A stretch of DNA of 64,000 nucleotides from a virus (IMGVR_UViG_3300049582_000032:1-64000); one strand, 5' to 3'; counted from the stretch's first letter, positions 23,400-57,280 are shown. Numbers and translations: made by a program. Notes: a model not told the origin generated them from the sequence alone.

Positions 23400-23449
23400 C
23401 AGTCATCCTCCAGCTATTCGAGGGAAGACACTTTCCCACATCCGGCCCA

Positions 23450-23479
23450 ATATGTCAAGTCAAGAATTGTGTTGACATT
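23450..23479. promoter_or_regulatory. Back-to-back -35 divergent promoter element, copy 1
   Basis: ATATGTCAAGTCAAGAATTGTGTTGACATT between divergent genes; identical copy at 61709..61738. Confidence 0.75.
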
Positions 23480-23531
23480 CAGCGCAGAATGCTGTCTAAT
23501 GGCGCGGAATTTTGGATTGGAGGCTAAAAAA

Positions 23532-23765
23532 GTGAAAATTACTCTCAGAATGGCAGACAATTACCAGGAACGCGACAAGCTTCATGAACAGCTTGGTAAC
23601 GCCATGTTCTCGCTCATGAACGCCGCTTCGATATTTTGTAGAATTGAGGGCGAAGAAGCAAAAGAAAGCGAAGCATACGATCTGATCTCCACAGCGATAG
23701 ACACAGTGGATGAAGCTATGAAGATCACGCCTGCTGGAATCATCGTAGAGCACTCAGACGCGTAA
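23532..23765 (+). CDS. Hypothetical protein
   Basis: GTG after GGAGG. Confidence 0.55.
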   Translation: MKITLRMADNYQERDKLHEQLGNAMFSLMNAASIFCRIEGEEAKESEAYDLISTAIDTVDEAMKITPAGIIVEHSDA

Positions 23766-23835
23766 GTGCAGATGGTGAGAGAAAATGGCCCCGTCGCAAT
23801 GATGGGGCCAAGTTTGGGAGGAAACGAACCTGACG

Positions 23836-24162
23836 ATGAGAACACTAGCTGCTATCGCAATCGCTGTCAACACTGCGTTTGCCACACCCGCTCTGGCCAT
23901 GAGCGCGCCTACGGAAAAACCGGATTTCGCACAGCAGCGTGAGGCCACGGTGGAATCGATGCAGGAATGCCATACGCTCATCGGGGCTGCGATGTTTCAG
24001 TACCGCATCCTGGACCGTATCGAGTTCGATGACGAAGCCATCAGCGTCACATGGAACGACAAGGCTGTCGGGCTTGGCGTAGCTGAAGAAGTCGGTGATA
24101 TGCAGGCAATCCTGATGTACTGCTTCGATCTGATTGAGCACCATAGAAACCCTGAGAACTAG
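23836..24162 (+). CDS. Secreted/periplasmic hypothetical protein
   Basis: Sec signal MRTLAAIAIAVNTAFATPALA. Confidence 0.7.
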   Translation: MRTLAAIAIAVNTAFATPALAMSAPTEKPDFAQQREATVESMQECHTLIGAAMFQYRILDRIEFDDEAISVTWNDKAVGLGVAEEVGDMQAILMYCFDLIEHHRNPEN

Positions 24163-24212
24163 CAACTCTGTTCTATGATGGATAGAGAAAGTCAAAGATT
24201 AGGGGGCCTGAC

Positions 24213-24968
24213 ATGGTCAAACAAGGCGAAACAATAGCTGTGTGGTTTTCTTGCGGTGCAGCTAGCGCCGTAGCGGCAAAAAAGACTATTGAGAAGTATG
24301 GGAAAATCGCGAAGATCAGGATCGTTAATAATCCTATAAAAGAAGAGCACAGCGACAATATGAGGTTTTTGCGCGATGTAGAAAGGTGGCTAGGAATCCC
24401 AATTGAATTTGCCATCAATACTAGATATCTATCTGGATCTTGTGTAGATGTTTGGAACGATAGGAAATTTATGTCTGGGCCAGCAGGAGCACCGTGTACA
24501 CTTGAATTAAAGAAAAAGGCTAGACTACATTGGGAAATAAATAACAATGTTGATTGGCACGTATTAGGTTTCACATTGGATGAAAAGAAGCGTAGTGACA
24601 ACTTTATTCGCAGAGAAAGAAGCAATCTGATTCCAGTCCTTATTGATGAGTGTATAACAAAAACACAATGTTTCGCAATAATTAAAGCCGCTGGTATCGA
24701 ATTGCCAGAAATTTATAAACTAGGATATCCGAATGCAAACTGTATAGGTTGTGTGAAGGCAACCTCACCAACATATTGGAATCATGTTCGTAAAATGCAC
24801 CAAGACGTTTTTAAACAGCGAGCAACACAATCACGGGAGATTGGCGCAAAACTTGTAAGATATAAAGGTAAACGTATTTTCCTAGATGAACTAGACCCAA
24901 GAGCAAGGGGAAAGTCCATGAAAAATATGGACTTTGAATGTGGACTTTTTTGTGAGGAGCGCGGATAA
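24213..24968 (+). CDS. PAPS-reductase-like (adenine nucleotide alpha hydrolase) phage protein
   Basis: VWFSCGAASAVA, APCT.ELKK, GF..DE..R, YKLGYPNANCIGCVK; AT-rich. Confidence 0.8.
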   Translation: MVKQGETIAVWFSCGAASAVAAKKTIEKYGKIAKIRIVNNPIKEEHSDNMRFLRDVERWLGIPIEFAINTRYLSGSCVDVWNDRKFMSGPAGAPCTLELKKKARLHWEINNNVDWHVLGFTLDEKKRSDNFIRRERSNLIPVLIDECITKTQCFAIIKAAGIELPEIYKLGYPNANCIGCVKATSPTYWNHVRKMHQDVFKQRATQSREIGAKLVRYKGKRIFLDELDPRARGKSMKNMDFECGLFCEERG

Positions 24969-24971
24969 CAC

Positions 24972-25457
24972 ATGCGCAAACTACCAAAACGCTGCGCCAT
25001 TGCACAGAAGAAGCAGGCAGCAGTCTTGAAGGTAATAGAGAACTCCATAGGCAAGCCGTGCCCAACGACTGACGAACTCGCCAAGGCCACCGGCCTTACA
25101 AAGAGCGACATCAGCCGGGCGACTTCCGCTCTCTACTTCAAGGGCATCTTGCAAGCCGACACAGACGGCGCAACAAGGAAGATCACCATCATTGCAACCG
25201 GCGAATCAACGCTTCCAGGGATTTTCTTCAATAAGCGCGGCATTCAGAGTCAGGAGCAGGATTGGCCAGCCGTGACAGGGATCAACATGGAGGGCGTCAG
25301 GTACGAGGACGCTACAAACATCCCGCTGGAAGACGCCATGCCGTTTCCGGTAAATCATCCTATCTCCAGAGCGATGCCAAGGATCAGGACCAACGACGCC
25401 ATCAATGTTCGGCTGAAGGAAAAAGCCAGGAACGTCTACGCTAAGGCTTGCGCATAG
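24972..25457 (+). CDS. LexA-like winged-helix DNA-binding protein
   Basis: PCPTTDELAKATGLTKSDISRA...L..KG.L. Confidence 0.65.
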   Translation: MRKLPKRCAIAQKKQAAVLKVIENSIGKPCPTTDELAKATGLTKSDISRATSALYFKGILQADTDGATRKITIIATGESTLPGIFFNKRGIQSQEQDWPAVTGINMEGVRYEDATNIPLEDAMPFPVNHPISRAMPRIRTNDAINVRLKEKARNVYAKACA

Positions 25458-25677
25458 CCTCAATCATGGAGATGCACTCTTCCCACTCGCCATGTCGCTG
25501 CATTGCACGAAGCCGCTCCACAAGATCACCAAGCCCCTCGCGGTATCCCTCATAGAACCGCTTTTCTTCAGCTTCACGGAGTCCCTTGCGATAACCCTCC
25601 TCGAATGCAGCCGCCCGGAGAGCTTCAACATCCACAGTGATTGGCTGGAAATCGCCAGAGTTCCCGTCATCGTCCAT
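25441..25677 (-). CDS. Hypothetical protein (EGYRxG repeats)
   Basis: Two xEGYRxGL units, a common small phage protein pattern. Confidence 0.55.
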   Translation of the reverse strand: MDDDGNSGDFQPITVDVEALRAAAFEEGYRKGLREAEEKRFYEGYREGLGDLVERLRAMQRHGEWEECISMIEAMRKP

Positions 25678-25706
25678 GACGGGTATTATAGCACGATATG
25701 GCAGGT

Positions 25707-26024
25707 CTACACCACCACCATTCGTTTCGGGTCCGTCTCGTGGGACCTTATCGCCAGGACGACTTGCATCCTGTCAGCGTTGTCATGATCCTGTGAATCT
25801 GTCATGTCCCAACCAAATGGCTGGACGGATGCAAAAACACCGTGCGCCACCTGCACCATCCCTCCAATCAACGGATACGGAGGCAGAGCATCCCTGATCG
25901 CATCCAAAAGACGCTTTCTGTGCCAGGACCAAGGCAAGTTCCCAGCATGAGGCAGGTCCCGAAGATGGCCAAGAGCCGCCTCGATATCCGTCTCTGAGAT
26001 TAGAAGTATTGGCCTTGGGATCAT
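25707..26024 (-). CDS. Hypothetical protein
   Basis: ATGA overlap with upstream gene. Confidence 0.55.
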   Translation of the reverse strand: MIPRPILLISETDIEAALGHLRDLPHAGNLPWSWHRKRLLDAIRDALPPYPLIGGMVQVAHGVFASVQPFGWDMTDSQDHDNADRMQVVLAIRSHETDPKRMVVV

Positions 26025-26290
26025 TCTTGATTTCTCCGGCAAACAAGAACCACATCATTGTTGTATACCCTGGAATGCTTGATGAACAGCTTGGCAATAA
26101 ACACGTCTCCAGTATCGACCAGCTTCATCGTAACAGACGGGACGACCTCTGTTGCAAAACCGTGTTCCACATTATCCGGAATATGCCTTGCAATCTGCTT
26201 CAGAAAGCTTTCCCTGTCCCAAGTGTCACCAAGAAATACTAGAACGTCCTTAAGGTTCTCGCGGCCAACAACTATATCCATGTCAGGCAT
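26021..26290 (-). CDS. Hypothetical protein
   Basis: Overlap-coupled operon member. Confidence 0.5.
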   Translation of the reverse strand: MPDMDIVVGRENLKDVLVFLGDTWDRESFLKQIARHIPDNVEHGFATEVVPSVTMKLVDTGDVFIAKLFIKHSRVYNNDVVLVCRRNQE

Positions 26291-26579
26291 CCCCAATGCG
26301 ATGCTCGTTCCGCTCAAGCCTGGCTTTCGCCGCCCACTTCATTGGAATAACCGCCAGCTTGACATCAACCCTTGGAGCCACCCTGTCCACAAGCCGATCC
26401 GCAAGATCATCATCAACATACATCACGGCATCCTTGAATGGACGGTCATCCGTGACTACGCCATCGTCATAGAACAAAGCCGCCGCATCCACGGCGTTAA
26501 CGATGCAGTAGCCCTCTTCCTTCCACTGAATGGCGCACTCGCACGCCGCGATGTCACTCTCGATATCCATCTCGTCCAT
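26283..26579 (-). CDS. Hypothetical protein
   Basis: GCTGGAGGA RBS 6 nt upstream. Confidence 0.6.
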   Translation of the reverse strand: MDEMDIESDIAACECAIQWKEEGYCIVNAVDAAALFYDDGVVTDDRPFKDAVMYVDDDLADRLVDRVAPRVDVKLAVIPMKWAAKARLERNEHRIGDA

Positions 26580-26684
26580 TTTGTCCTCCAGCTTTTGGTC
26601 TAAACGTTGACGGCACTATGTCACATCATTCCGGTGATGTCAAGTCTTGACTTCGGATGATGCTCATGGTAAAGTTTATCCATT

Positions 26685-27062
26685 ATGATATTCATCTCCG
26701 GATCACAAACCATTACCGATCTGACCACCGGCTTCACGCAGCGGATCGATAACATCATCGCCAAAAACCTGCCCGTCATAACCGGCAACGTGGAGGGAGT
26801 GGAGGCGGCAGTGGTAGCCTATTTAAGTTCCAAAGGCTACAGGAATTACGTACAACGGCCCAACCAGGATTGCATAAACTCCGCGAGCTACGGGCTGTTC
26901 ATGTGGGACGGAACCAACGACAGAACCTTGAAAAACGTCATGCGCATGAAGGCCATGGGCAAACCGTCCGTGATCTATACGCCGTTCAACACAGAACTCG
27001 GCAGGCCGGACGAGCCGCTGAAAGAGGAAACATACGTGCTGGAGGGCGTATCAAATGCCTGA
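26685..27062 (+). CDS. SLOG/YspA-like nucleotide-binding protein
   Basis: IFISGS.TI, VITG...GVE..V..YL...GY, FMWDG pattern; TTGACT promoter upstream. Confidence 0.55.
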   Translation: MIFISGSQTITDLTTGFTQRIDNIIAKNLPVITGNVEGVEAAVVAYLSSKGYRNYVQRPNQDCINSASYGLFMWDGTNDRTLKNVMRMKAMGKPSVIYTPFNTELGRPDEPLKEETYVLEGVSNA

Positions 27063-27285
27063 CTTTGAACATCTCGACCATGTTTTCGTGAATGAAGGCC
27101 AAGGCGAACGCTACGGCAGAATTGTCAAGAAACTCAACGCAGGATCTTATATCGTGGAGTTCATGGACAACAAAACACGAGGAACATTCGAGGCGGATCG
27201 TATCAGGCTGGCTAGCTGCGAGGAACAGATCAAGCTTGGATACTCAAGATATGATGAGGAGACGGTGACTGATCCAGAGTTCCTT

Positions 27286-28569
27286 GTGAACTACCCCTGC
27301 CTAAAGGCAGAGGCTTCTAGCTTCTCAGGCAATTGCGATTCACTTGGCTTGCGCCCCGCGGATCGTCTGACATTGCCTCCACTAGCAGTAGCGGGCGCTC
27401 CACCCGCCAAAATCCTTAACCCTTCATCACGTATATTGATGGCCGCGTTAACATCCCTATCATGGTGCGTTCCACAATGGCCACACTGCCAAGCGCGAAC
27501 CTTAAGCGGGATCTTATCATGAACGCTGCCACATACGTTACAAGTCTTTGTGCTCGGGAACCACCTATCGCATTTAACGAAAGCCTTTCCTGCACGCTCC
27601 GACTTGTATTCCAGGAAACGTGTGAGCATTCCCCACCCTACATCCGAAACAGCTTTCGCAAGATTGTGATTCTTCAGCACGCCTTTAACGTTTAGATCTT
27701 CGACGCATATGACTTGGTTTTCGTCAATCAGGCGTCGTGACAGTTTATGTAGATAGTCCTTGCGAGCACATGCGACCCTCTCATACGCCCTCGCAACAAG
27801 CCGCCGTGCCTTATTTCTTCCAGCGGACCCTTTCTTTCTGCGAGATAGCTTGCGCTGCTTCCTCTTAAGATTCCTTTCAGCTTTCCGAATATGTCTCGGA
27901 TTATCGAATTTAGACCCGTCGCTTGTGACGGCCAAATGAGTCAACCCAACGTCAATGCCAATCGCCTTGCCATCGCTGGAAATTGCAGGCAGTTCAACGC
28001 CATCATCCGTCAAGATAGAAGCATGGTATCGCCCGGCAGGATTCATGCTAACGGTAACGGTCTTAATGCGCCCGAATAGCTCTCTATGGACAACGCACCG
28101 AACCCACCCGACTTTTGGCAAATAGATTCGGCTGCCGTTAACCTTAACCCTCTGCGGGTATTGTATAGACTGCCTGCCATGTTTCGATTTGAAACGAGGA
28201 TAGCGCCCACGCTTCTGAAAGAAGTTCTCATATGCGCGAGAAAGGTTCTGTAATGATTGCTGCAACGCTTGTGAGTCTGCATCGCGCAACCATTTAAATT
28301 CTGCCTTCAACTTTGGCAGACGGATTGCCATTGCATGGTAGTTCAAGCCCTTGCCGGTTTCTCTATACAATGCGCCACTTGTCGCGAGGGCTTCATTCCA
28401 GACCCATCTAACGCAACCGAATTGCATCGTCAGAGCCTTAGTCTGATCTATTGTCGGATACATACGAATTTTGGTTGCCGTAAGCATTGTTTAGGTATAC
28501 AATGCTCTCGTCTAAATGTCAAGGGCCTTATATCCCCTGCCTAAAGACAAGGGTTTTACGGCCCATTAG
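27286..28569 (-). mobile_element. IS200/IS605-family tnpB-only (IS1341-like) element
   Basis: Related subterminal hairpins CCCCTGCCTAAAG(G/A)CA.(A/G)GG at both ends; right end TCAC; TTAT target motif outside left end; no target duplication. Confidence 0.88.
27291..28487 (-). CDS. tnpB: RNA-guided endonuclease TnpB
   Basis: HTH_OrfB N-terminus; RuvC GIDVG, VEDL, DRDVNAA.NI; CxxC zinc ribbon. Confidence 0.95.
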   Translation of the reverse strand: MLTATKIRMYPTIDQTKALTMQFGCVRWVWNEALATSGALYRETGKGLNYHAMAIRLPKLKAEFKWLRDADSQALQQSLQNLSRAYENFFQKRGRYPRFKSKHGRQSIQYPQRVKVNGSRIYLPKVGWVRCVVHRELFGRIKTVTVSMNPAGRYHASILTDDGVELPAISSDGKAIGIDVGLTHLAVTSDGSKFDNPRHIRKAERNLKRKQRKLSRRKKGSAGRNKARRLVARAYERVACARKDYLHKLSRRLIDENQVICVEDLNVKGVLKNHNLAKAVSDVGWGMLTRFLEYKSERAGKAFVKCDRWFPSTKTCNVCGSVHDKIPLKVRAWQCGHCGTHHDRDVNAAINIRDEGLRILAGGAPATASGGNVRRSAGRKPSESQLPEKLEASAFRQG

Positions 28570-29385
28570 ATAAGGTTGAGAACGGCTCTAACAGACGAGA
28601 CTTAATCGTAACTGCCTTTAATAGCCAGCCTCATACTAATGTAGCTTTTGGAACACTCTATCATAGAGTATCGCTGCCTGCAAGGAGAATTACACAAAGA
28701 GCTATTCTACCGCCCATGGATCGCCGGGTTGTATGTGTGTAGAGAGTGGCGGCGCACGAGACTAGCATAGAGGAAATGATGTGCATGGAGCCTGTGGGGG
28801 AATGGAACTGGTGGTAGGATAGCATAGAATCTGGTGGGTACCTAGAATTTTTGACGGGAGTACATAAAAAGAATCTTGGGTGATAGGGTATCAACTTTTG
28901 TACAGTACACCAGCAAAATAAAAAAAGACTCTTCACCTCCATATAAAAACAAAACATACCTTAACTCTTCACCTCAATATCAATACACTGCATCAGACGT
29001 ACTATGATGTTTGTGATTAGCGAACGGCTCACGTTCACCATCCGTTCCCACACCCAACCTCTCTGCCTCGCACCTCATGACCACCACCGCCACCCTACTG
29101 TCAGCCAGCGCCCGCACCACACAGTACGGGCAGAGACCCAACCGTCCGGCTATCCCTGCCGTACTCATCCCATCCACTGCCATGCACCCCAGTTCCCATG
29201 CATCCATACTCTTGCTCCCTGCCTGCCGCTCCCGTACCATCATAGCACCCTCGCCCCAACGAGAGTGAGATTGTCTTGAAATGAGAGCCGTGGGGTATCT
29301 GGCATAGGTGGATTTCCGCACGCAGAGTTTTGCAAGCATGACCATCTGTCCGGGCTCCTGAACAAAAGGAGAACACTCCGGGCAT

Positions 29386-29417
29386 GAAAAAAGGGCCACT
29401 GGGAAACTGGTGGCCCC
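29386..29417 (-). terminator. Intrinsic terminator ending the early gene cluster
   Basis: Minus strand GGGCCAC-loop-GTGGCCC followed by TTTTTT. Confidence 0.75.
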
Positions 29418-29433
29418 TTGTCACTCCGGCCGC

Positions 29434-29673
29434 CTAATCCCAATCGGGGCCGTAGACTCCACTGTCGCAAGCCGCCTCAAAACGTTCGTCTGTGTAGAAG
29501 CGTCTCAACCGGCCTTGCAGAGTCGCGTCATCAAGTGCTTCAAGCTCCTTCATGGCCGCTACTGCGTCTTCCCGATAGCAGAACTCGTCAAAACCATCGG
29601 TGACGCTATAGGCGCTTTGATCCTTCGGGCCAACGATGTAGCGGTAGCCGTCTTTGAAAACTGCCAGTTTCAT
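29434..29673 (-). CDS. Small early protein
   Basis: ACTGGAGGG RBS; ends before terminator. Confidence 0.65.
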   Translation of the reverse strand: MKLAVFKDGYRYIVGPKDQSAYSVTDGFDEFCYREDAVAAMKELEALDDATLQGRLRRFYTDERFEAACDSGVYGPDWD

Positions 29674-29806
29674 ATCACAACCCTCCAGTCAGCTTGCGGA
29701 ACTCCTCGCCCATCTCGTCTTTGCTCAGTTTGTCTTGAAGATTGATTGGCATTCTATTCTCCCCAGTATGGGCGAGTCCATCGGGGCTCGCCCTGTTACA
29801 TCGGCC

Positions 29807-30028
29807 TTAGGCTACGTTGAACCCCATACGCTTTAGTTCGTTGAAGGACTCCAATATCTTGTCTGAAAACTCAGCTTCCTTCCTGTCGTCGCCATCGCGG
29901 TACGCAACAGCAGACTTCCATGTGTCTGCCCACACCTTGCGGATTAGGCATTCGATAGCATCTCGCTCGCCAGCCGTCAGCTTTGAGGCAGTTACGCCAA
30001 CTATCTGTGGCAAGTTGTATTCGTTCAT
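29807..30028 (-). CDS. Small early protein
   Basis: GGAGGA RBS; TTGAC promoter at 30081. Confidence 0.65.
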   Translation of the reverse strand: MNEYNLPQIVGVTASKLTAGERDAIECLIRKVWADTWKSAVAYRDGDDRKEAEFSDKILESFNELKRMGFNVA

Positions 30029-30091
30029 CGGTTCCTCCATCAACCAACCTTCAATAATCCTACTCCCCCACCAGGGAACCGTCAACACTTT

Positions 30092-30340
30092 TTATTGGCC
30101 AGTAGAATAAAGCTTCTCGCACCCAAGAAAGACGTACAGCTTCGGGTGTGTCACCCTGATAAGCCCGATCTCGGCGTATTCATGGATAGCCTCGGCTTCG
30201 CCCTTGCAGTAAGCAACGCTCCCACCGAACGCCCCCAAGACGGCCAGCGAGCACGAGGCCACAAGCGCAACGCCAGCCAGGCCCCTGCGCCATCCTTTGA
30301 ACCGCCACCGAACAGTTTTGTCAGATACGATTGCATTCAT
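30092..30340 (-). CDS. Small membrane protein
   Basis: One hydrophobic helix. Confidence 0.55.
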   Translation of the reverse strand: MNAIVSDKTVRWRFKGWRRGLAGVALVASCSLAVLGAFGGSVAYCKGEAEAIHEYAEIGLIRVTHPKLYVFLGCEKLYSTGQ

Positions 30341-31005: not shown

Positions 31006-31070
31006 CACATCCTCCAGCTTTTTGTCTTGCGCGCTAGCAGAAGTCCGCTAGGACGCTGTTGATATCCGGC

Positions 31071-31247: not shown

Positions 31248-31296
31248 GATTTTCTCCAGCGGTTTGGGCGACCCGGTTCAGAGCCGCCCGTTGTCC

Positions 31297-31527: not shown

Positions 31528-31685
31528 TTCACTGTCTCCAGTTTCCTGGCCATGCTTGCGAACGTCGCGGGTCGTTTCCCTGGCATTTCCAGCACTTCGG
31601 CGATGCGTTTTTCTCGTGCTTCCCTTCCGTCTTTCAGCAGAGTTTCCGAGATCGCAAAAATTTCCTTCATTGAAACGTGACTCAT
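31524..31685 (-). CDS. Small early protein (53 aa, not in track)
   Basis: MSHVSMKEIFAISETLL..., GCTGGAGAA RBS, promoter at 31746. Confidence 0.6.
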   Translation of the reverse strand: MSHVSMKEIFAISETLLKDGREAREKRIAEVLEMPGKRPATFASMARKLETVK

Positions 31686-31902
31686 GATTTTCTCCAGCTT
31701 TTGTGTTCCTCTTGTGCTTTCAGCCTACGCCCCTACGCACCCTCTGTCAACTCTTATTCTCTCTAACCCCCAAAAAAGCCCACCATCGCTCCGATCACGG
31801 CCAGCCCGGTCGCTAACACTCTGTAACTCCACGATTTTTTCCGAACCCTAGGAAAATGCATTCCCAAGTTGTATTCATGCGCAACCATTGGTATGTCCTT
31901 CA

Positions 31903-32178
31903 TCACCCGTAGCAATGCCTGAACACAACGCTTCCATCGCCGTCTCCTGTCAGGTATCCGCGAACACGGCATCCCTTGATTGAGCATACCGCCCCAATGC
32001 TGAAGAACGTGTCCGGTTCCGCGGATGTGACATAGACATTTGCCCGCATATCACCTGCCAAGCTTTCAAGTCTACAGTTCCTCACTTCTGACAGGGAAGG
32101 CCCGCCCATCCAGTCCGTGTAGCCCACGCGTGCTCCGTCCAACTGATCCTCAAAGAAGTCTGTACGGAATTTCTTCAT
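31903..32178 (-). CDS. Small early protein
   Basis: MKKFRTDF..., GCTGGAGG RBS. Confidence 0.65.
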   Translation of the reverse strand: MKKFRTDFFEDQLDGARVGYTDWMGGPSLSEVRNCRLESLAGDMRANVYVTSAEPDTFFSIGAVCSIKGCRVRGYLTGDGDGSVVFRHCYG

Positions 32179-32236
32179 GGCGACACCTCCAGCCAGTCGT
32201 TGGACATCTGCCGCTGTGGCGTTGGCTCGTACATCT

Positions 32237-32464
32237 TCAATCCTCCAGCTTATTCCCAAGGCCGCGCGCTTCCGCAAACTCCTCGATGGATTGCTCCTCA
32301 AGGATTTGCTCAAGCTCATGCGTGCCGTTCATGTCATCTTCGCGTTCTATTGCATACAGAGCCTGAAGAATATCAAACCACAACTCCGCTGCATCTTCCT
32401 TGTTGCTCGTTATAGAAAGCGCGAAATCCGATGCCTCCCGTAATGCGGCAGTAAGGTCAATCAT
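32237..32464 (-). CDS. Small acidic early protein
   Basis: Overlap-coupled; GAGGAG RBS. Confidence 0.55.
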   Translation of the reverse strand: MIDLTAALREASDFALSITSNKEDAAELWFDILQALYAIEREDDMNGTHELEQILEEQSIEEFAEARGLGNKLED

Positions 32465-32706: not shown

Positions 32707-32787
32707 TTCCTGCCTCCAGCAACAAGAAATTATTAACTGTGTAGAGTGTACGCCCCCAGCTATGAGAAGTCAACTCTTTTATGCTGG

Positions 32788-36667: not shown

Positions 36668-36724
36668 AGAAGTTCTCCAGCAGTTGAAGACCCATCCTAC
36701 CGTAATTGGATCAGCCTTGTCAAG

Positions 36725-41218: not shown

Positions 41219-41653
41219 ATGCCGAAAGGCAAAAGCAACGAAGATCGTGAGACGATGAGTGGAAATCTGTTCATCGTAGAGATGGCTGAAGATAGCGCAA
41301 ACGTAACGCGCCTCCCAATCAACGTGAAGCTGGAGACAAACACGGTTGAGGTCAATAGCGGGGATGTCATCTACCCCAAGCGCGACCACGCCGTTCGGGC
41401 GATTGTTGAGGTCATTACGGATGATCTCGGCAGCACGTATTCCACTGACGGTCTTTCAAAGGGTGCCGCCAAGGCCGTTGCAAAGCACGTCGAAGGACTG
41501 CGCAAGAAGGTCGCTCAGGCCGTGCGGGCTCAGATCACGAAAGCAGGTGCGGGGCAGACTGTTTCCATCTCCCTTGATCCCGCCGAATACGATATCGAGG
41601 ACGATAGCGAGGACGAAGACCTGCCGGAAGATCAATTCCAAGCGGCAGAGTAA
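41219..41653 (+). CDS. Hypothetical protein with acidic tail
   Basis: TTGACA-N17-TATATA promoter, AAGGAG RBS. Confidence 0.75.
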   Translation: MPKGKSNEDRETMSGNLFIVEMAEDSANVTRLPINVKLETNTVEVNSGDVIYPKRDHAVRAIVEVITDDLGSTYSTDGLSKGAAKAVAKHVEGLRKKVAQAVRAQITKAGAGQTVSISLDPAEYDIEDDSEDEDLPEDQFQAAE

Positions 41654-41704
41654 CACTGCAAGATAAGGCTTGACTTTGCCGAAAGCAGCCTTATCATTCT
41701 ACCT

Positions 41705-41826
41705 TAGAGCAAGGGGAGTGTAGCTGCTTTAGTGGTTCTCCAGCACTTCTAAAAGCCTCAGGCTCCTCCCGGCTCTTTGAAACCCCTGGCAGCCAGCCCC
41801 CCTCTGGCTCCAGGGGTTTCGCCTTT
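41705..41826 (+). ncRNA. Candidate phage sRNA with anti-RBS loop (GUUCUCCAG) and C-rich terminal hairpin
   Basis: TTGACT-N16-TATCAT at 41670-41697; long hairpin AGAGC..GGGAG..GCTTT-AGTG[GTTCTCCAG]CACT..AAAGC..CTCCC..GCTCT; then GAAACCCCTGG...CCAGGGGTTTC; no ORF. Confidence 0.65.
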
Positions 41827-42018
41827 CTAGCCTACAGCATCCGGATTATCATGGAACTTACGGAATAGCTGGTCCCACTGGCTTGCGCGAATCATGCGTG
41901 GAAGCTTCGGGTCTTTCTCGGATTGAAGCCTGATATACTGTTGAAACGCACAGAGAATTTCCATCTCCTGAGCCGCGAATTCCTCTATCGTGAGTTCAGG
42001 ATCTTTGTCTTCTTCCAA
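41827..42018 (-). CDS. Small hypothetical protein
   Basis: AAGGAG RBS; resembles 43700..43885. Confidence 0.6.
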   Translation of the reverse strand: MEEDKDPELTIEEFAAQEMEILCAFQQYIRLQSEKDPKLPRMIRASQWDQLFRKFHDNPDAVG

Positions 42019-43583: not shown

Positions 43584-43699
43584 CGCTGCCTCCAGCGTAA
43601 GGGGTTCATTTGGGGTATGAGTTGTCATGATCTCGTTAAAGATCAAGAGGATGCTAGGGCAAAATCCGCAAGCGCGCTGTGGGAAAACTCACAATCTTC

Positions 43700-43885
43700 T
43701 CAGACGCCACCTCTCAGTTTGAGATCCCCAAGCCACTCGGCAAACGCCATTTCCCATTCCTCTTCGCTCTTCACCAGTGGATATGCGTCCGGGTGCAAGG
43801 CAGAGGAAGCTCGCCACTCTTCGTAGAAATCCAGGAAGAGAGAACGCTTGGCCATAACCCATTGATCAAGTGTTGATACGGACAT
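43700..43885 (-). CDS. Small hypothetical protein
   Basis: GGAG RBS; resembles 41827..42018. Confidence 0.55.
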   Translation of the reverse strand: MSVSTLDQWVMAKRSLFLDFYEEWRASSALHPDAYPLVKSEEEWEMAFAEWLGDLKLRGGV

Positions 43886-43953
43886 TACTTAACTCCATCG
43901 TCTCTCTCCAGCATTTCGTTATAGCAGCAAGTATATCATAACAAGCTATGTTG

Positions 43954-44863: not shown

Positions 44864-44967
44864 TGCGCTCTCCAGCGATTCAACTTCAGAGCATTGTAGT
44901 GGGATTGCGGGGTGATGTCAAGACTTTTGTTGGGGCGTTACGATCTAATAATGTGTGGGTGGATCGC

Positions 44968-46120: not shown

Positions 46121-46609
46121 GGCGATACCTCCATCCCTCGGATCTGACGCATAGGTATGTCATCCCTGAAACAAAGTCAATCATTTTCTGCGAGGAATGC
46201 GCGCGGATTTGCAACACGTTGTCTCGCTATGTTTCACCCTTGAGGTGAATGTAATGTTTCATAGCTGGTGAAACATACGCTCCAAAAATCCCTTTAAAAT
46301 CAACGGCGATTTTTTGCTCTTCTTACTCTAATACCCTTCCGGTCCCCCTACCAGCGCCGCATCCCTATGTCGCTCCGTCCCGTCGCTCGTCGGGCGTAAA
46401 AGAATGCTCGCTCCGCTGCGCTTGTCTTGAAGGTAAAGATCTCCACCAGCCCTCCCTTCCTCACCCTTCCCCAATCGCCATAGCAAAGAAGAGTTGACAT
46501 CACCATCTGGCATATGGCACACTGACGGCCACATGAAATCTGGAGGACACGATGGCCGACAAAAAATTAATCGCCAACTTGCTGGGTATGTCGCGGCTGC
46601 ATTCTTGAC

Positions 46610-51243: not shown

Positions 51244-51308
51244 CAAGGAACCCCTGCACCTGATATGGTGTTTCCTCCAGAACAACTTTGGAGCAGGGAC
51301 CAAGAGCC

Positions 51309-51482
51309 ATGAGCGAAGAGAAACAGAAAGACCCGCAAATCGAGGAGCTTGAGAAGGAAGTCCAAAAGTCGTACGAGCTTGGTGATGGACCAGACGAGGA
51401 AGAGAACGAGGTCCATAGGAATGAACAGGACAAGGACGTGACCGTGCCGGAAGAAGGCGTGCCAAGCCCAAGCGTTCGGTAG
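51309..51482 (+). CDS. Small acidic protein
   Basis: 57 aa, Glu-rich. Confidence 0.5.
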   Translation: MSEEKQKDPQIEELEKEVQKSYELGDGPDEEENEVHRNEQDKDVTVPEEGVPSPSVR

Positions 51483-51626
51483 GTTTGTCTTGAAGTTGAT
51501 GTAAGTTCCAAGCCCCGGCAGGTGACGCCCACTTGTCGGGGTTTTCCATGCCTGCAACAACAAAGAGTTGACCTGCCGCCCATTCTCCGGTATAGTCGCC
51601 TTGGGGGTCGAAAGCTGGAGAAGACA

Positions 51627-52220
51627 ATGAAACGTGCCCTGATGTTGAGCGTTGCGGCTGTAGCGTTCTCGACGAGTTCCGTTGCCGCTGAAGTGTGCAA
51701 TAGCAAGGTAAGGTCAGCCCCTGAGCATATCGTTCGGCTGGTCCACGAGATAGCGCCAAGGCATAACGTTGATCCTGGCCTCGTGTTGGCGATGATCTCT
51801 GTTGAGTCGGCCTTCGATCATAAGGCGGTGTCGCACAAGAACGCCCGTGGCCTGATGCAGATTATCGGGGCTACGTTCGAGCGTTTCGGGACTGGCGATG
51901 TCTTCAATCCTCAAGACAACATCGGCGGTGGGGTCAGGTTCATGCGCTGGTTGCTGGATCGCTTCAAGGGTGACGTGTCCCTGGCATTGGCTGGTTACTC
52001 CGCAGGACCGGGGGCTGTGGCCAAACATGGTGGCATACCTCCATACAAAGAGACGATACAGTACGTCAGGAAGGTTCTGTCCAGGTATGGCTGCCCGATT
52101 GCTGTAGTGGCGATGCCAGAGCCGCAAGCCACACAGAATCCCGCCAAGGTTACTGAGATCAGCTACGTAAATCCATGGGAACCGGCTGGCCTCAGAAAAC
52201 AAACAAGCGTGGGCTGGTAA
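51627..52220 (+). CDS. Exported lytic transglycosylase (SLT)
   Basis: Signal peptide; ISVESAF, ARGLMQI, ALAGYSAG, IPPYKET..YV; GCTGGAGAA RBS. Confidence 0.92.
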   Translation: MKRALMLSVAAVAFSTSSVAAEVCNSKVRSAPEHIVRLVHEIAPRHNVDPGLVLAMISVESAFDHKAVSHKNARGLMQIIGATFERFGTGDVFNPQDNIGGGVRFMRWLLDRFKGDVSLALAGYSAGPGAVAKHGGIPPYKETIQYVRKVLSRYGCPIAVVAMPEPQATQNPAKVTEISYVNPWEPAGLRKQTSVGW

Positions 52221-52261
52221 AGAAGAGTTGACACATATGATGCATCGATGTATGATGACTT

Positions 52262-52546
52262 TTGTTGGGTTGGAAAAGAGGTATGGTGATGATCGCGGTA
52301 ATCGACAATCTGGATCAGTACGATCACTTATACGAGTGGGCCACAAATGAGTATGGTCCTTCGATAGAAAGCGGAAAGACTGTCTGGAGCAATGCATTCT
52401 ATGGGCCTCCAAAAGCAACAGACAGATACAGCGTCGATCAACTTACTCGTATTGGTATGGTTGGGGTTTATCGCAAGAGAGATGGAAAGCCACTTACCAT
52501 TCTGAAATCAGAATTCTATGTCCTGAATAATCTGTTGGAGCGATAG
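52262..52546 (+). CDS. Hypothetical protein (start uncertain)
   Basis: Downstream of promoter at 52228. Confidence 0.5.
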   Translation: MLGWKRGMVMIAVIDNLDQYDHLYEWATNEYGPSIESGKTVWSNAFYGPPKATDRYSVDQLTRIGMVGVYRKRDGKPLTILKSEFYVLNNLLER

Positions 52547-52550
52547 AGAT

Positions 52551-52949
52551 ATGTCTACGATGCCTAAGCGTGTTCACTTTGATCCAATGGCCGATGGTGG
52601 GTGCCCGCAGTGCGAGTGGGTTGAAGACAATTTCGGGGTCCATTTGTTCAAGATGTGTGAATTGCACCAGAAGATTGGTGAGCTGGAGGAAGAGAGGATT
52701 TTCGACAAACAGTGCTACGATATAATGAGTGATATGTTCAACAAGGTGTGCTCAATCCTTGATGTTGGTGAAGAGGAAGATGCTGCCGCTGTTGCCAGGG
52801 ATCGAATGGAGGATATCAGATATCTTGATAAGATCTGCAAAAGGATTGATGCCATGAATCTATGGACCGCGATAAACTATCGTGAAGATGATGATAGGCT
52901 GGATTATTTAGAGAATTGTCCTGAAGCCCCTATAAAGGTGACAACATGA
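52551..52949 (+). CDS. Hypothetical protein with CxxC
   Basis: Operon member. Confidence 0.55.
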   Translation: MSTMPKRVHFDPMADGGCPQCEWVEDNFGVHLFKMCELHQKIGELEEERIFDKQCYDIMSDMFNKVCSILDVGEEEDAAAVARDRMEDIRYLDKICKRIDAMNLWTAINYREDDDRLDYLENCPEAPIKVTT

Positions 52950-53377
52950 AAGCAATCGAGAAAGCTGAGGCTGCAATGCGCGAGGCACATGACAAGCACA
53001 AGGATAAGTTCATCAACCCGTGGGAGTGGGCAACGCCGAACACTCAGAAGGTGATTTCTCATGCGGATGTTGTGAAGCCGTTTGCGACGTTCACGGTCTT
53101 GGGTGTTTCAGAGAATGGGCGTGGTGGCAAGGCGGTTGCGGTTCATCATTCAAGGAAGCGCGATGAGGCAAGGGAGTATGTGCGACTTCAGCAAGAGCAA
53201 GGCGCGAAGCATGAGTTTTTCGGAAGAGCTTCCTTTGTCACGGTGCGCTCCAATTCCAGCATTGCTGAGAGATACATGTCACAATTGCCGAAGGAGCAGG
53301 TCAAGCAGCAGGCGTCAGAGCCGAAGAGACAGCCAAAGGCTCATCGGAAGGAACAGCAGCTTACCATGGGGTTCTAG
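52946..53377 (+). CDS. Hypothetical protein
   Basis: ATGA overlap. Confidence 0.6.
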   Translation: MKAIEKAEAAMREAHDKHKDKFINPWEWATPNTQKVISHADVVKPFATFTVLGVSENGRGGKAVAVHHSRKRDEAREYVRLQQEQGAKHEFFGRASFVTVRSNSSIAERYMSQLPKEQVKQQASEPKRQPKAHRKEQQLTMGF

Positions 53378-54126
53378 TGAACGACTTCCTCAAGTGGATT
53401 AATGATCCAGAGACACTTCATAACAACCGGAATAGGGTGGTTGATGCTGTCAGACCGGAGATCCAGCACGCGGCATGGGTTCTGGATCTTCCGAAGGTAA
53501 CGGCACAATCGAGGCCGGGGCGTTACCTTGCTGCCAGGGGGCTTTGGTTTGATGGCCGCTATCCCAACGATCTGAGGATTGCCGGCAATGGCGACATGAT
53601 TACTCTCCTTCGGGATCGTAATGGGTTGGTGTGCTCATATCAAAAAACTGTCCTCAAGGAGGGGCCGCTGGGATACCCCTACAAAGAAAAGTCAGTCATG
53701 ATGAAGAACCCGGATGGATACAAGATTCCACGCGATGCCGCCATTCGTTTGGGGACTGCCTTTCGTGTTATGGGTGTTGGGGAAGGGACAGAAACAGCGC
53801 TGTCTGCCTTGAAGAGGTTCGGCGTTACGACATGGGCTCTTGGCGGCTCATCAAGGATGGAGATGTGGACGCCTCCTGTTGGGATTAAGGCGCTTCACAT
53901 CTTCAAGGACAGGACGAGCGACAAGGAGCTTGAGAAGGCTAGAGCAATCGGTGGCATCTCTCCTGTTGACAAGGCGGCTCAGGTATTGAGAGGGCGTGCG
54001 CACAAGCTTGGGATAGCCGTTACGGTGCACGAGCCTGAGAGGGGTATAAGGCTGGATAACGGCAGGCCAATCAGCGATTTCAATGATGTCTTGAGGAATG
54101 AAATGAGCATGGAGATGCAAAGATGA
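53377..54126 (+). CDS. Toprim-domain primase-like protein
   Basis: YLAARGL, AAIRLG, VGEGTETALS, IFKD, DFNDVL. Confidence 0.82.
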   Translation: MNDFLKWINDPETLHNNRNRVVDAVRPEIQHAAWVLDLPKVTAQSRPGRYLAARGLWFDGRYPNDLRIAGNGDMITLLRDRNGLVCSYQKTVLKEGPLGYPYKEKSVMMKNPDGYKIPRDAAIRLGTAFRVMGVGEGTETALSALKRFGVTTWALGGSSRMEMWTPPVGIKALHIFKDRTSDKELEKARAIGGISPVDKAAQVLRGRAHKLGIAVTVHEPERGIRLDNGRPISDFNDVLRNEMSMEMQR

Positions 54127-54392
54127 GTGAGTTCCAGAAGGCCCGAAAGGGAGCGAACACCAACAATGCCACTGAAATTAACTACACTGCCACAAAGGAA
54201 GGTGCCGTACTCCACACGAAGGATGGTGATACCACAATCCCATTGAAGAAGCTTGGTGAGATGTACACGAAGGCTTTGGAGTTGCATAGGGCTCATCTAT
54301 CACAGGATAGGTCAAAGCTTGTAAAAGGAATTGATTTCAACAACAAAAGAGATTATGATCCAAATGAAATGAGGTATAACCGTAGTCGGTGA
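54123..54392 (+). CDS. Hypothetical protein
   Basis: ATGA overlap. Confidence 0.55.
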   Translation: MSEFQKARKGANTNNATEINYTATKEGAVLHTKDGDTTIPLKKLGEMYTKALELHRAHLSQDRSKLVKGIDFNNKRDYDPNEMRYNRSR

Positions 54393-54393
54393 T

Positions 54394-54909
54394 ATGCAGA
54401 TCCCTGATGACATTCACGTATATGGAGACAAGAACTTCAGGGGTATGTGTCCTGAAGAAAAGCACGAGATAGCTTCATTCTTCCAGGAACTAAGGTTACG
54501 ATATCCGGATCTTGCAAAGACAGCGTGCCATGTCCGCAATGAAGGTAAGCGCACCAGATGGGAAGCGTACAAGCATAAGAAAGAGGGTATGGTTCCGGGG
54601 ATAGCTGACATAGTGATAGGGGGGATACCGACAGCTTTCATAGAACTCAAACGCAGAGATCATACTCAGAGCAAGCTGCCTACAGGACAGATTGAGTGCC
54701 TAAGAGCGGCAAAAAGCCAGGGGTGTTTTGTTGCGATAGCCCTTGGTGCGGAAGCCGCAATGAGGGCTGTAGAGCGATGGATGGCGTTATCTAAGAAGGT
54801 TGAGAACGTTCTTGCTCAGAACGGCCTGACGAAGGAGAACGGATATGGCTCCAGGGAAAAGAGAGAACAGACTAAGGTGGCGGATTTCTCCAGATCGCTC
54901 AACAGATGA
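54394..54909 (+). CDS. VRR-NUC nuclease
   Basis: HVRNEGKR, EGMVPGIADI, FIELKR, Q. Confidence 0.85.
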   Translation: MQIPDDIHVYGDKNFRGMCPEEKHEIASFFQELRLRYPDLAKTACHVRNEGKRTRWEAYKHKKEGMVPGIADIVIGGIPTAFIELKRRDHTQSKLPTGQIECLRAAKSQGCFVAIALGAEAAMRAVERWMALSKKVENVLAQNGLTKENGYGSREKREQTKVADFSRSLNR

Positions 54910-55120
54910 CTACGCTGTGAACGAGAACGGGGAACCGGCATTTCTGGTTGAACTCAGCCCGTTCGATGGGTGGATTTTGCACGAGCCAAAGATGACGGAA
55001 TACTGTGGTATGCGGATTATCGTATGGGAGCCTGTATGGGAGTGCGACAGGAAGGAACAGGCTATTCGGGAAGCCGATATCCGTCACAGGTGCAGAAAAA
55101 GTGTTGACGTGACGCCTTGA
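54845..55120 (+). CDS. Hypothetical protein
   Basis: GAAGGAG RBS. Confidence 0.45.
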   Translation: MAPGKRENRLRWRISPDRSTDDYAVNENGEPAFLVELSPFDGWILHEPKMTEYCGMRIIVWEPVWECDRKEQAIREADIRHRCRKSVDVTP

Positions 55121-55165
55121 GAATGGCATGATGACGGGCATTCAAGCAAGGACCGGGGTGAAACT

Positions 55166-55756
55166 ATGATTGTCTCCTTCGTCTCTAAATACCGCAAGGT
55201 CGGCAAGAACCATGCTTGCGAGACCATCGTCAAGAGCAAGGTAGCTGGCAAGGTGCAGTTGGTTGAGTTTACCTCGGCGCTGAAGGTGTGTGCCGATCTC
55301 TTCATGGACGAGAGCCACGACAAGCACAGCATTGTCCCATGGTTCGGTGTGTCAAAGATCGACGTTGTGAACGCGATCAGCGGGGCGCTTGAGAGGCTTC
55401 ATCCTGAGATCCCGGTTATGAAGATCAAGGATGAGATCGAGCGGCTTGTCATCGACGGCTGGCACGTTCTTATCCCGGATGTTCGCAGGCAGCGTGAGTT
55501 CGAGTGGCTGGACATGATTGCCGAGCGTCATGGATTTGACCATCACATCCTTGAGGTTTTCCCCGTGGACAAAGAGGGGATGATGATGGACACATGGCAG
55601 AGCGCAACCGGAGAGCCGTGCGGTTATGAGGTCTGGAGGGACAGGCGGCGCTCCATCATCGCCAATGATGGGACGGAAGATTTCGATGCGTGGGCTGTTT
55701 CTGTATTCCGGTCTTTTTTGAGAGACACGGAAAAGCATAAACATGAGGAAGCATGA
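55166..55756 (+). CDS. Deoxynucleoside monophosphate kinase-like protein (divergent)
   Basis: VGKN, F.SALK, VLIPDVR..RE, IIANDGT. Confidence 0.6.
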   Translation: MIVSFVSKYRKVGKNHACETIVKSKVAGKVQLVEFTSALKVCADLFMDESHDKHSIVPWFGVSKIDVVNAISGALERLHPEIPVMKIKDEIERLVIDGWHVLIPDVRRQREFEWLDMIAERHGFDHHILEVFPVDKEGMMMDTWQSATGEPCGYEVWRDRRRSIIANDGTEDFDAWAVSVFRSFLRDTEKHKHEEA

Positions 55757-55885
55757 TGAGCACACTAATTGTCAGCGTCTTAAGGAAAGACAGAGGCGAT
55801 TGGCCGAACGCACGTTTGTTGGTTCACAATGATGGCGCTCATAATTTCGACAAGTGGATATATGAACTGAAGACGGAGCTTTTTA

Positions 55886-56581
55886 GTGGCTAATCCGCTG
55901 GATAAGTACATGATTACAGACGCTGATCATGAGCGGCGTAAACGTGTTCTTGGGGGCAGTGACGCAACCATACTGGCGAAGGGGCGGCTGGATGACATCA
56001 TCGATTTATGGAAGTTGAAGACTGGCTTGAAAAGCCCGAGCAAGGCGTTTCCTTCACTTGCCCAGCTTTTGGGAACAGCAACCGAGCAATTGAACGCCGA
56101 CTATTTCGAGGCAAGCACAGGCAGGCTGGTATGGGGTAGGAGCACGAATCTCACGCACCCGGAACATCAGTGGCTCGGCTTGTCTGCTGACGGATTTACG
56201 AAATCGGATGACGGCAGAGACGCATATCTTGAATTCAAGTTCATATCATGGAACAAGGATTTAAACAGACTGTATGAAGAACGCCGTTATGAGTTTGAAA
56301 ATCTTATTAGGAGAAGGGCATGGGCGGAAGAGGTGATCCTACCAAGGATCTTTGATACCTACTACGCACAGTGCCAACACGCGATGTTTGTAAGTGGTCT
56401 TGAAGTTGCAATACTCTGCCCTATAATCGGAAATGAGCAATACCCACGGGAGTTCGAGTTCGATCCAGAATATTTGGATGCTCTGTTCGATCTTGAACAG
56501 CGATTTTGGACGTTTGTAGAACTTAAGATAGAGCCAGATGAATCAGTCATGGGAGGAGTGAGTTTTGAACGAGCAGGATAG
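55886..56581 (+). CDS. YqaJ / lambda-exonuclease-family nuclease
   Basis: LGGSDA, LW..KTG, LSADG, LEFK, YYAQCQHAM.V.G, FW..V. Confidence 0.85.
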   Translation: MANPLDKYMITDADHERRKRVLGGSDATILAKGRLDDIIDLWKLKTGLKSPSKAFPSLAQLLGTATEQLNADYFEASTGRLVWGRSTNLTHPEHQWLGLSADGFTKSDDGRDAYLEFKFISWNKDLNRLYEERRYEFENLIRRRAWAEEVILPRIFDTYYAQCQHAMFVSGLEVAILCPIIGNEQYPREFEFDPEYLDALFDLEQRFWTFVELKIEPDESVMGGVSFERAG

Positions 56582-56807
56582 AAGTGATTTCTCGGATGCC
56601 TTCGATGAACTGAAGGACGAACTAAGCTATGCGGTCAAGGACCATGGGTTCGACGCGGCATTTCGTGCACTGATTACACTAACTGCAATTCTTGCTTTGG
56701 AACTGTATGAGGATCATGCAGAGGCCAGCAAGGCAATGACAGAAATATTCTCCGAGGAATCACTGGCTAGGCTTGTTTCCTTAACATCTATCAAAAGAAT
56801 GAGTTGA
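56565..56807 (+). CDS. Hypothetical protein
   Basis: GGAGGAG RBS, TTG start. Confidence 0.55.
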   Translation: MNEQDRSDFSDAFDELKDELSYAVKDHGFDAAFRALITLTAILALELYEDHAEASKAMTEIFSEESLARLVSLTSIKRMS

Positions 56808-56870
56808 CATATACATCATTCTTTGGTAACATTTGGAACATCAACGGTATAGCGAAATTGGAGAAAAGAT

Positions 56871-57257
56871 ATGACGAACAAAGTTGAGCTTGAGGGGTTT
56901 GTTGGACAGGATGGAGAGATGAAAACTCTTCCTGGCGGTGCATCGGTTTTCAACTTCTCTATTGCGACAACTGACTCGTGGAAAGATCGCAACACAGGGG
57001 AACAAAAGAAGGTAACGGAATGGCATCGTGTTGTCTGCTATGGAAAAGTTGCCGATGAAGTTGCCAGCTTTGTAAAAAAAGGGGCTTTGGTTTATGTTCG
57101 TGGAAAGCTCAAGAACCGCAGTTGGACAAATCCGTCTGGAGAAAGGCGAACGACTACCGAAGTCCAGGCATACGAGGTTTTGCAGAAGGAGCGCCACGCG
57201 GCAGGGTCAGGCTGGACGCGGCAGGCTGCCGATCTGGATGATACCGTACCCTTCTAG
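56871..57257 (+). CDS. ssb: Single-stranded DNA-binding protein
   Basis: NKV.L.G.VG.D, TEWHRVV, KG..VYV.GKL..RSW, DDTVPF tail. Confidence 0.95.
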   Translation: MTNKVELEGFVGQDGEMKTLPGGASVFNFSIATTDSWKDRNTGEQKKVTEWHRVVCYGKVADEVASFVKKGALVYVRGKLKNRSWTNPSGERRTTTEVQAYEVLQKERHAAGSGWTRQAADLDDTVPF

Positions 57258-57280
57258 CATCTGACCGCTGGAGAGAAAGC

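Follow-up and report, generated by a model that had tools for sequence, protein, structure and literature searches.

A GCTGGAG motif at translation starts of a phage from rhizosphere metagenomes, and a candidate small RNA that could read it

The phage record IMGVR_UViG_3300049582_000032 raises the question why a group of its genes should carry, directly before the start codon, a ribosome-binding sequence of which only a part can pair with 16S rRNA. The sequence is GCTGGAG, and it stands 6–8 nucleotides (nt) upstream of ATG at 14 positions in the window, i.e., in the first 64 kb of the 101,660-bp IMG/VR virus record (about 90% complete). An original prediction from the sequence of this window had proposed that the motif marks non-structural genes and is read by a small RNA (sRNA) or by a GGA-binding protein. 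The motif is a real, highly non-random and position-locked element at translation starts. With moderate confidence, GCUGGAGR (R, purine) can be regarded as a start-associated tag which is read at translation initiation and places non-structural genes under common control.

The motif before start codons

GCTGGAG was present at all 14 coordinates of the original prediction, on the strand given there and with an ATG 6–8 nt downstream, and each copy was followed by a purine, as claimed (7 G, 7 A). Copies outside ribosome-binding sites (RBS) carried a purine at this eighth position in 21 of 33 cases, compared with 14 of 14 at the sites (P 0.002). The two resulting octamers, GCTGGAGG and GCTGGAGA, were equally enriched. 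Shuffled sequences contained 10.8 ± 3.1 copies of the 7-mer, the window 34. Coding sequences provided a further background, with 32 copies in 188.5 kb of strand; at this rate 0.07 copies were expected at a distance of 6–8 nt before the starts of 144 genes (our own calls), and 12 were seen (P 4.7e-23). A count independent of gene calls, which covered words ending 4–10 nt before any ATG opening at least 50 codons, placed GCTGGAG at the top of all 7-mers (14 seen, 1.9 expected), and the next ranks were taken by its own overlaps CTGGAGG and CTGGAGA. GCT preceded 14 of the 74 GGAG sequences that sit before open reading frames (ORFs) beginning with ATG; the next best trinucleotide preceded 5. The information profile showed eight constrained positions and an A-rich stretch at -4 to -2, and nothing else was conserved. 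The start codon was ATG at all 14 sites, compared with 119 of the 144 genes overall. An origin of the motif as the coding end of upstream genes was ruled out, since the sites are intergenic except for 32187, which lies in a mini-ORF of 19 codons, and 32243, which extends across the stop of the upstream gene.

The inability of the GCT part to pair with the standard 16S tail, which had been part of the original claim, was confirmed with the tail of Metarhizobium album (...GCGGCTGGATCACCTCCTTTCT) and with duplex energies. The GGAG(G) core pairs with CCUCC of 16S rRNA at a distance of 6–8 nt from AUG, and only this core behaves as a Shine-Dalgarno (SD) sequence. Duplexes with the 16S tail reached -6.4 kcal/mol for GGAGA and -9.3 kcal/mol for GGAGG, regardless of the preceding bases; the invariant GCU added no pairing energy against GAUCACCUCCUUUCU, which is the standard tail and may not be that of the host. 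Pairing of GCU with 16S rRNA was rejected on these grounds.

The pattern GCTGGAGR-N5-7-ATG occurred at 138/Mb in the phage versus about 16/Mb in the richest, and about 4/Mb in a typical one, of 121 alphaproteobacterial genomes, a sample that may not include the lineage of the host; the density in the phage was thus about nine times that of the richest genome. Four capsid-related phage records contained no enriched 7-mer of the GCTGGAG kind. Judged from these sequence comparisons, the motif is private to the phage, being uncommon in the sampled Alphaproteobacteria and not carried by the capsid lineage.

The distance between motif and ATG is fixed (6–8 nt), whereas that between the -10 box and the motif is variable (12–24 nt), and the stretches between promoter and motif are unrelated in sequence. 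A promoter element was ruled out by the variable distance, and duplicated promoter-RBS cassettes were ruled out by the unrelated flanks. The fixed spacing to ATG, the variable distance to the promoter and the unrelated flanks together argue that the motif acts on the mRNA at translation initiation. That nothing but the A-rich stretch at -4 to -2 is conserved besides also speaks for a short site on single-stranded RNA rather than for a DNA operator.

Sites, promoters and genome context

PHROG searches located capsid, portal and fibre genes on the minus strand at 0.4–10.2 kb, a fibre protein of 1,623 amino acids (aa) at 14.5–19.4 kb, and further virion proteins at 79.8–101.6 kb of the record. 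Between these virion modules lie genes for replication, recombination, nucleotide metabolism and lysis together with many small unknown genes. From near 46 kb, two arms run in opposite directions. The leftward one extends from 46 to 21 kb on the minus strand, and most of its proteins are without a recognisable family; the rightward one begins at 46.5 kb and reaches about 79 kb, with TrbE/VirB4-like genes at its end. One protein of this region, of 851 aa (record 72036–74591, outside the window), showed distant similarity to TrbE/VirB4 (about 20–23% identity, E down to 2e-19 versus plasmid trbE).

The proposed restriction to non-structural genes turned out to be weak: the motif was found at none of 31 late genes versus 12 of 113 others (P 0.048), and the difference becomes weaker still if a possible site in the virion module (at 90447, see below) is counted. 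The leftward arm (21–46 kb) had the motif at 10 of 39 genes versus 2 of 105 elsewhere (P 3.5e-5), and the clustering is better described by this arm than by non-structural genes only. The association with TTGAC promoters was well founded, since 8 of the 14 sites belong to first cistrons behind promoters of this type; six are operon-internal. Among about two dozen intergenic sigma70-type promoters in the genome, seven of eight clear leftward ones are followed by the motif, versus one of ten rightward ones. About 20 of the intergenic promoters (e.g., 31750, 32773, 46494, 51568, 52228 and 60191) share the upstream context AAGAGTTGACA, AAGACTTGACA or AAGTGTTGACG, which suggests a phage-specific UP-like or extended -35 element.

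First cistrons on the minus strand have GCTGGAG(G) at 23408–23414, 8 nt before ATG 23399 of a 154-aa phosphatase-like protein (promoter TTGACA 23458); at 26586–26592, 6 nt before ATG 26579 (98 aa; promoter 26643); and at 32714–32720, 7 nt before ATG 32706 (81 aa; promoter 32773). GCTGGAG(A) is found before first cistrons at 31692–31698, 6 nt before ATG 31685 (53 aa; promoter 31750); at 36675–36681, 7 nt before ATG 36667 of a 374-aa sliding clamp (promoter 36723); and at 44870–44876, 6 nt before ATG 44863 (110 aa; promoter 44921). GCTGGAG(A) at 43906–43912, 7 nt before ATG 43898, stands behind promoter 43957. The remaining minus-strand sites are GCTGGAG(G) at 31012–31018, 6 nt before ATG 31005 (67 aa; operon-internal), GCTGGAG(A) at 31254–31260, 6 nt before ATG 31247 (58 aa; operon-internal), GCTGGAG(G) at 43590–43596, 6 nt before ATG 43583 (331 aa), and the GCTGGAG(G) copies at 32187–32193 and 32243–32249, which stand 8 nt before ATG 32178 (91 aa) and 8 nt before ATG 32234, respectively. 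The plus strand carries GCTGGAG(A) at 51614–51620, 6 nt before ATG 51627 of a 197-aa transglycosylase-like protein (first cistron, promoter 51568), and at 57267–57273, 7 nt before ATG 57281 (147 aa; operon-internal).

Variants of the motif extend the family. ACTGGAG occurs, as had been claimed, before ATG 29673 (79 aa; ACTGGAG(G) at 29683–29689, minus strand) and before ATG 31527 (76 aa; ACTGGAG(A) at 31536–31542, minus strand); TCTGGAG(G) (TCTGGAGG; 46539–46545, plus strand) is situated 6 nt before ATG 46552, behind the first rightward promoter at 46494. Outside the window, an ACTGGAG-type variant, ACTGGAGG, precedes record positions 64423 and 64943, and GCTGGAGG stands before a TTG start codon in the virion module (record 90447). 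A possible further member, GCTGGAG(G) at 27038–27044 (plus strand), occupies the loop of a small hairpin (ATACG/CGTAT) and is separated from ATG 27055 by 10 nt. The ORF beginning at 27055 runs into a TnpB element: its 3' part (ORF 27055–27522) is overlapped by a TnpB gene of the IS200/IS605 type (27291–28487, minus strand; phrog_506, E 9e-131) inside the leftward arm, whose best DNA matches are alphaproteobacterial plasmids (67–70%).

Two of the starts listed originally need correction, since ATG 32234 opens only 19 codons and ATG 43898 only 10. Three promoter-proximal mini-ORFs, of 19, 10 and 18 codons (32178–32234, 43868–43898 and 46552–46608), each have an NCTGGAG site at their head. The stop of the 19-codon mini-ORF, which contains the 32187 site as codons W-L-E, overlaps ATG 32178 (ATGA) of the next motif gene, and the 18-codon leader at 46552 stops 1 nt before ATG 46610 of the first gene of the rightward arm; because they end on, or 1 nt before, the next ATG, both look like coupling leaders. 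The 10-codon mini-ORF overlaps in another frame ATG 43885 of a 61-aa gene, which has its own GGAG 7 nt upstream.

The phage record was present in rhizosphere metagenomes of many studies, and variant strains about 2% apart exist. In a population comparison, in which uncovered stretches were not interpreted, 40 of 377 differences were listed. Among these, spacers beside the 32187, 32243 and 31692 sites had changed or gained bases and one insertion was directly 5' of the 26586 motif; none was inside a motif, which is weak evidence considering the small numbers. Larger changes were also seen: in two runs the segment 43880–43959, with promoter, motif and mini-ORF, was replaced by 214 other letters, and one run had a 15-nt tandem duplication (ATACGTGCTGGAGGG) at 27031, touching the 27038 site.

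No close relatives of the phage were found. Its capsid protein was at most 66% identical to any match (capsid relatives, 61–66% on the amino acid level; best prophage match, Metarhizobium album, 65%), and no alignment to the capsid relatives on the DNA level was found outside the capsid gene. Megablast against phages gave no match. IMG/VR scans seeded with the clamp and helicase proteins detected no relatives of the non-structural region, nor were relatives detected by JGI metagenome scans with the 331-aa protein and the clamp; a single homologue of the clamp (95%) was found among 5.8 billion proteins. A tRNA search was negative.

A candidate small RNA and the rival readings

A candidate sRNA unit is situated on the plus strand at 41670–41828. 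It consists of a promoter-like site, an imperfect long hairpin, an 18-bp GC-rich terminator hairpin and a U-rich tail, and it occupies a 173-nt gap between a plus-strand gene (41219–41653) and the end of a leftward operon (41827). The promoter, TTGACT-16-TATCAT (41670–41697), has 10 of 12 matches, no ORF is contained in the unit, and the whole unit folds at -57.3 kcal/mol (z -4.3). The predicted 8-nt apical loop UCUCCAGC (41737–41744, plus strand) is the exact reverse complement of GCUGGAGA; it is apical in the minimum-energy fold as well as in the ensemble, and its bases are 0.70–1.0 unpaired. The fold thus predicts an exposed seed which is complementary to the ribosome-binding sites of the proposed targets.

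Predicted duplexes of the motif leaders with this loop reached -16.4 to -16.9 kcal/mol, versus -6.4 to -9.3 kcal/mol with the anti-SD, and SD sequences without the motif reached just -8 to -9 kcal/mol with the loop, i.e., motif leaders were better by 7–8 kcal/mol. The leader of the clamp gene (36675 site) has 11 contiguous nt complementary to the candidate sRNA. The equal use of A and G at position 8 fits pairing to the 5' U of the loop better than pairing to the anti-SD, which favours G. Of 48 GCTGGAG copies in the genome, the one at 41.7 kb is the only one located outside genes and away from starts. When windows of the same size were folded, the complement lay wholly in a small hairpin loop of the opposite strand for this orphan copy and for the 27038 site only (1 of 47 others); read on the minus strand, the orphan copy also displays the motif itself in a hairpin loop. 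A ranking of duplexes with the loop, in which all motif genes (11 called starts and 3 alternative starts added by hand) were in the top 28 of 146 translation-initiation regions and 5 in the top 7, is circular and was not used as evidence.

At gathering score no Rfam family matched the window, and the matches at 41.6–41.9 kb did not exceed chance level; a search with a 15-mer of the loop region also gave only chance matches. The protein encoded beside the unit (41219–41653) had no Pfam family, and its atlas matches were below TM 0.4. At 41576–41620, contigs of two runs match up to 41620 and then diverge, and others match only from 41576 rightwards, which suggests a mosaic junction just upstream of the unit. 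The 16S rRNA of Metarhizobium album reads GCUGGAU just before the single-stranded anti-SD tail, a match to the motif in 6 of 7 positions; the loop (UCCAGC) is thus also complementary to this stretch, which is probably a coincidence.

From these data a mechanism can be outlined. GCUGGAG(R), usually after A-rich bases, would be a phage-private RBS extension which tags non-structural genes for common control, the tagged genes being mostly in the leftward arm and mostly first cistrons behind host-type sigma70 promoters. A trans-acting reader would recognise the whole octamer. The favoured reader, an RNA of about 120 nt from 41.70–41.83 kb, would be antisense to the leftward arm, and its loop UCUCCAGC could form base pairs along the entire octamer (A-U or G.U at R), covering the Shine-Dalgarno sequence and blocking 30S binding on operon leaders. 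The leftward arm might thereby be switched off, in a carrier state or late in infection. That this RNA is the reader is proposed tentatively, on the basis of modelled folds and duplexes. It is likewise possible, but far from assured, that it would act as a "private anti-Shine-Dalgarno", i.e., as a loop RNA which reads the GCU tag on about 14 of the phage's own genes and silences or times the arm, while host mRNAs are untouched.

Several observations weigh against such an RNA. Hairpin 1 alone was not unusually stable compared with shuffled sequences (z -1.0), the terminator tail fails a simple T-run rule, and no RNA sequencing runs holding the region 40.5–45.5 kb were listed. The accessibility of the motif in leaders was similar to that of other SD sequences (0.39 vs 0.47, P 0.23). 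About one intergenic copy of the 7-mer is expected by chance (7.4 kb intergenic), so that the link to the RNA rests on the position of the copy, judged after the fact; it also rests on one genome. Of the regulon which had been proposed to be read by an sRNA, the motif at starts and the exactly complementary loop have stood up, and the link to the RNA remains a plausible prediction.

Perhaps there is no dedicated reader, and GCUGGAGR is the preferred strong RBS of this lineage, with a GGAG or GGAGG core, optimal spacing, A-rich bases upstream, AUG and often AAA after it. Its GCU would then have been fixed by accident or reflect a slight preference of the ribosome, and the copy at 41738 would be a coincidence. 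The core is indeed a normal SD at normal spacing, the second codon is AAA or AAG in 5 of the 14 genes, and TGGAG is the commonest context of GGAG genome-wide because of CTG-GAG codons; the sampled Alphaproteobacteria also show a mild excess of the pattern over a reversed control, and the chance expectation for an intergenic copy and the unexceptional hairpin 1 would be accounted for. However, three invariant bases without pairing function at 14 unrelated genes would be very unlikely without selection (GCT 14 vs 5, of 74), and the flanks are not conserved, so the sites are not duplicated cassettes. Position 8 holds A as often as G, even though the anti-SD pairs with G only, and neither the ninefold density over any sampled bacterial genome nor the sharp confinement to one arm would be expected. 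This explanation is considered rather unlikely. A protein reader, such as a translational repressor or activator of phage or host origin, or an endoribonuclease acting on ribosome sites of early genes, appears less likely again. RegA and RegB of T4 and CsrA are precedents, the many arm proteins without a recognisable family leave room for an RNA-binding protein, and the 27038 site and the orphan copy (minus strand) show the motif in a hairpin loop in a CsrA-like manner. Yet the phage offered no support for the GGA-binding protein of the original prediction: in a six-frame search of the 101.7-kb record there was no match (E ≤ 1) to CsrA (PF02599), RegA (PF01818), RegB (PF10715) or Hfq (PF17209), no protein candidate lies beside the orphan site, and GGA is preceded by U, whereas CsrA prefers an A there.

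The word could also act on the DNA level, as a Chi-like signal, as a restriction/modification site (CTGGAG) or as a half-operator, which is highly improbable. GCTGGAGG is a published Chi-type octamer, which appears among the Chi variants of Haemophilus and among the Chi candidates of some Proteobacteria, and the 7-mer is about 3-fold over shuffles genome-wide. But half of the sites read GCTGGAGA, with both octamers equally enriched, the copies outside RBS are split about evenly between sense and antisense, and the spacing is fixed to ATG and not to promoters or genome ends; a Chi hotspot was rejected for these reasons (A or G equally at position 8, no polarity, ATG-fixed spacing). Neither repeat symmetry nor flank conservation speaks for a DNA-binding protein, and a CTGGAG restriction site was rejected because the word is enriched where avoidance would be expected.

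Comparison with known systems

The closest parallel to the tag read at initiation is provided by the start-associated sequences (SAS) of cluster K mycobacteriophages. The SAS, GGGATAGGAGCCC, is a word of 13 nt located 3–7 nt ahead of start codons that are mostly ATG (Pope et al. 2011, PMC3203893); it occurs at 11–19 non-structural genes per genome, is conserved beyond 16S pairing and is almost absent from the host (PMC3203893). One orphan copy in reverse orientation was also reported, and the authors left open whether the reader is an RNA or a protein (PMC3203893). The role of SAS was still called unknown in 2024 (PMC11373665) and 2025 (PMC12699233).

GCTGGAG shares its form with SAS: one short asymmetric word is repeated without change a few nt ahead of the starts, mostly ATG, of many unrelated genes (here 14 exact copies, with SAS about 11–19 per genome). 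Like SAS, it contains an SD core, is conserved at positions which are unable to pair with 16S rRNA (GCU) and has one orphan copy off gene starts. SAS is rare in its host and lies outside the virion module; the present motif is rare in the sampled Alphaproteobacteria, and its absence from late genes is weakly supported (P 0.048, with the possible late-module site at 90447). Several features differ: SAS has 13 nt versus 8 nt here, no ESAS-like inverted repeat is found upstream of the present motif, the phages are unrelated and the host of the present one is probably Gram-negative, and the genes marked in the present phage are promoter-proximal cistrons of a single arm. Since the word is different and neither an ESAS nor homology is found, the motif does not belong to the cluster K element and is to be regarded as its analogue; as far as sequences allow, GCUGGAGR is an independent analogue of start-associated sequences.

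In phage Anaya the orphan SAS, the single reverse-oriented copy of cluster K1 phages, is situated in an ORF-free gap of 385 nt between gp96 and gp97. A strong hairpin is predicted there (record about 59840–59905), and its apical loop of 10 nt (CCUCCUAUCC) is formed by this copy on the transcribed, forward strand. Conservation of the region extends to 138 cluster K records, in some of which a hypothetical protein is annotated over it. No mention of this hairpin was found in the SAS papers cited here. In an aligned cluster K subset, the hairpin is present in most Anayavirus-type members, its stem being largely invariant, and the outer stem changes in pair-preserving ways, according to our own reading of the alignment and not to a count by a tool. 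Ekdilam and Amgine still have the hairpin, its loop having lost the match to SAS, and in Keshu the hairpin is absent. These three carry 14–16 SAS without an exact anti-SAS loop, which must be added to the points against an RNA reader; such a loop is hence not a general requirement, and the cluster K case is not strong support. From the predicted folds, it shows that the architecture recurs, and a requirement for it is not implied. By analogy, the logic of an orphan anti-motif hairpin may explain at least some mycobacteriophage SAS.

SAS have been known in mycobacteriophages since 2011 without a reader or mechanism, and the present motif adds a shorter analogue in an unrelated phage with host-type promoters, together with a concrete sRNA hypothesis. 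If the hypothesis were true, this would be the first start-associated motif with a nameable reader: phages would label their transcripts at the ribosome site with a private tag, through which a single RNA governs the whole set. This would represent a new level in the timing of phage genes or in immunity and could furnish an orthogonal translation switch for engineering. Should the sRNA reading fail, private RBS extensions would still have arisen independently in distant phage lineages.

The mode of action proposed for the candidate RNA would resemble that of the c4 antisense RNA of P1 and P7, a small structured RNA encoded by the phage and needed in trans to keep the icd-ant operon off. c4 RNA pairs short exposed stretches to sites which include the ribosome-binding site. 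In both cases (and with the CI RNA of P4) a small phage RNA would block phage genes via their ribosome-binding sites. c4 differs in being processed from the single operon leader that is its target, whereas about 14 dispersed targets are proposed here; no match to Rfam C4 was found in the window.

T4 provides a parallel on the side of the targets: RegA binds translation-initiation regions of early genes, RegB cuts GGAG in early SD sites, and CsrA is known to bind GGA. In the T4 sets, too, a temporal class of phage genes shares a translation-initiation signature and is controlled post-transcriptionally as a class by a phage factor that reads it, which in the present case is predicted. RegB and RegA differ in being protein readers, and here the extra specificity would lie in the GCU 5' of GGAG. 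Seeds complementary to the SD regions of many mRNAs are found in the UCCC loops of the staphylococcal RNAs RNAIII and RsaE, and in GcvB. These RNAs use, like the candidate RNA, a loop or single-stranded seed for many SD regions; they are host sRNAs acting on ordinary SD sequences, whereas the loop at 41.7 kb would have a seed with three extra bases for a private tag. With the canonical SD/anti-SD interaction, finally, the motif shares the GGAG(G) core, and it differs by the GCU and the A of position 8, which are unpaired and bring zero gain in energy.

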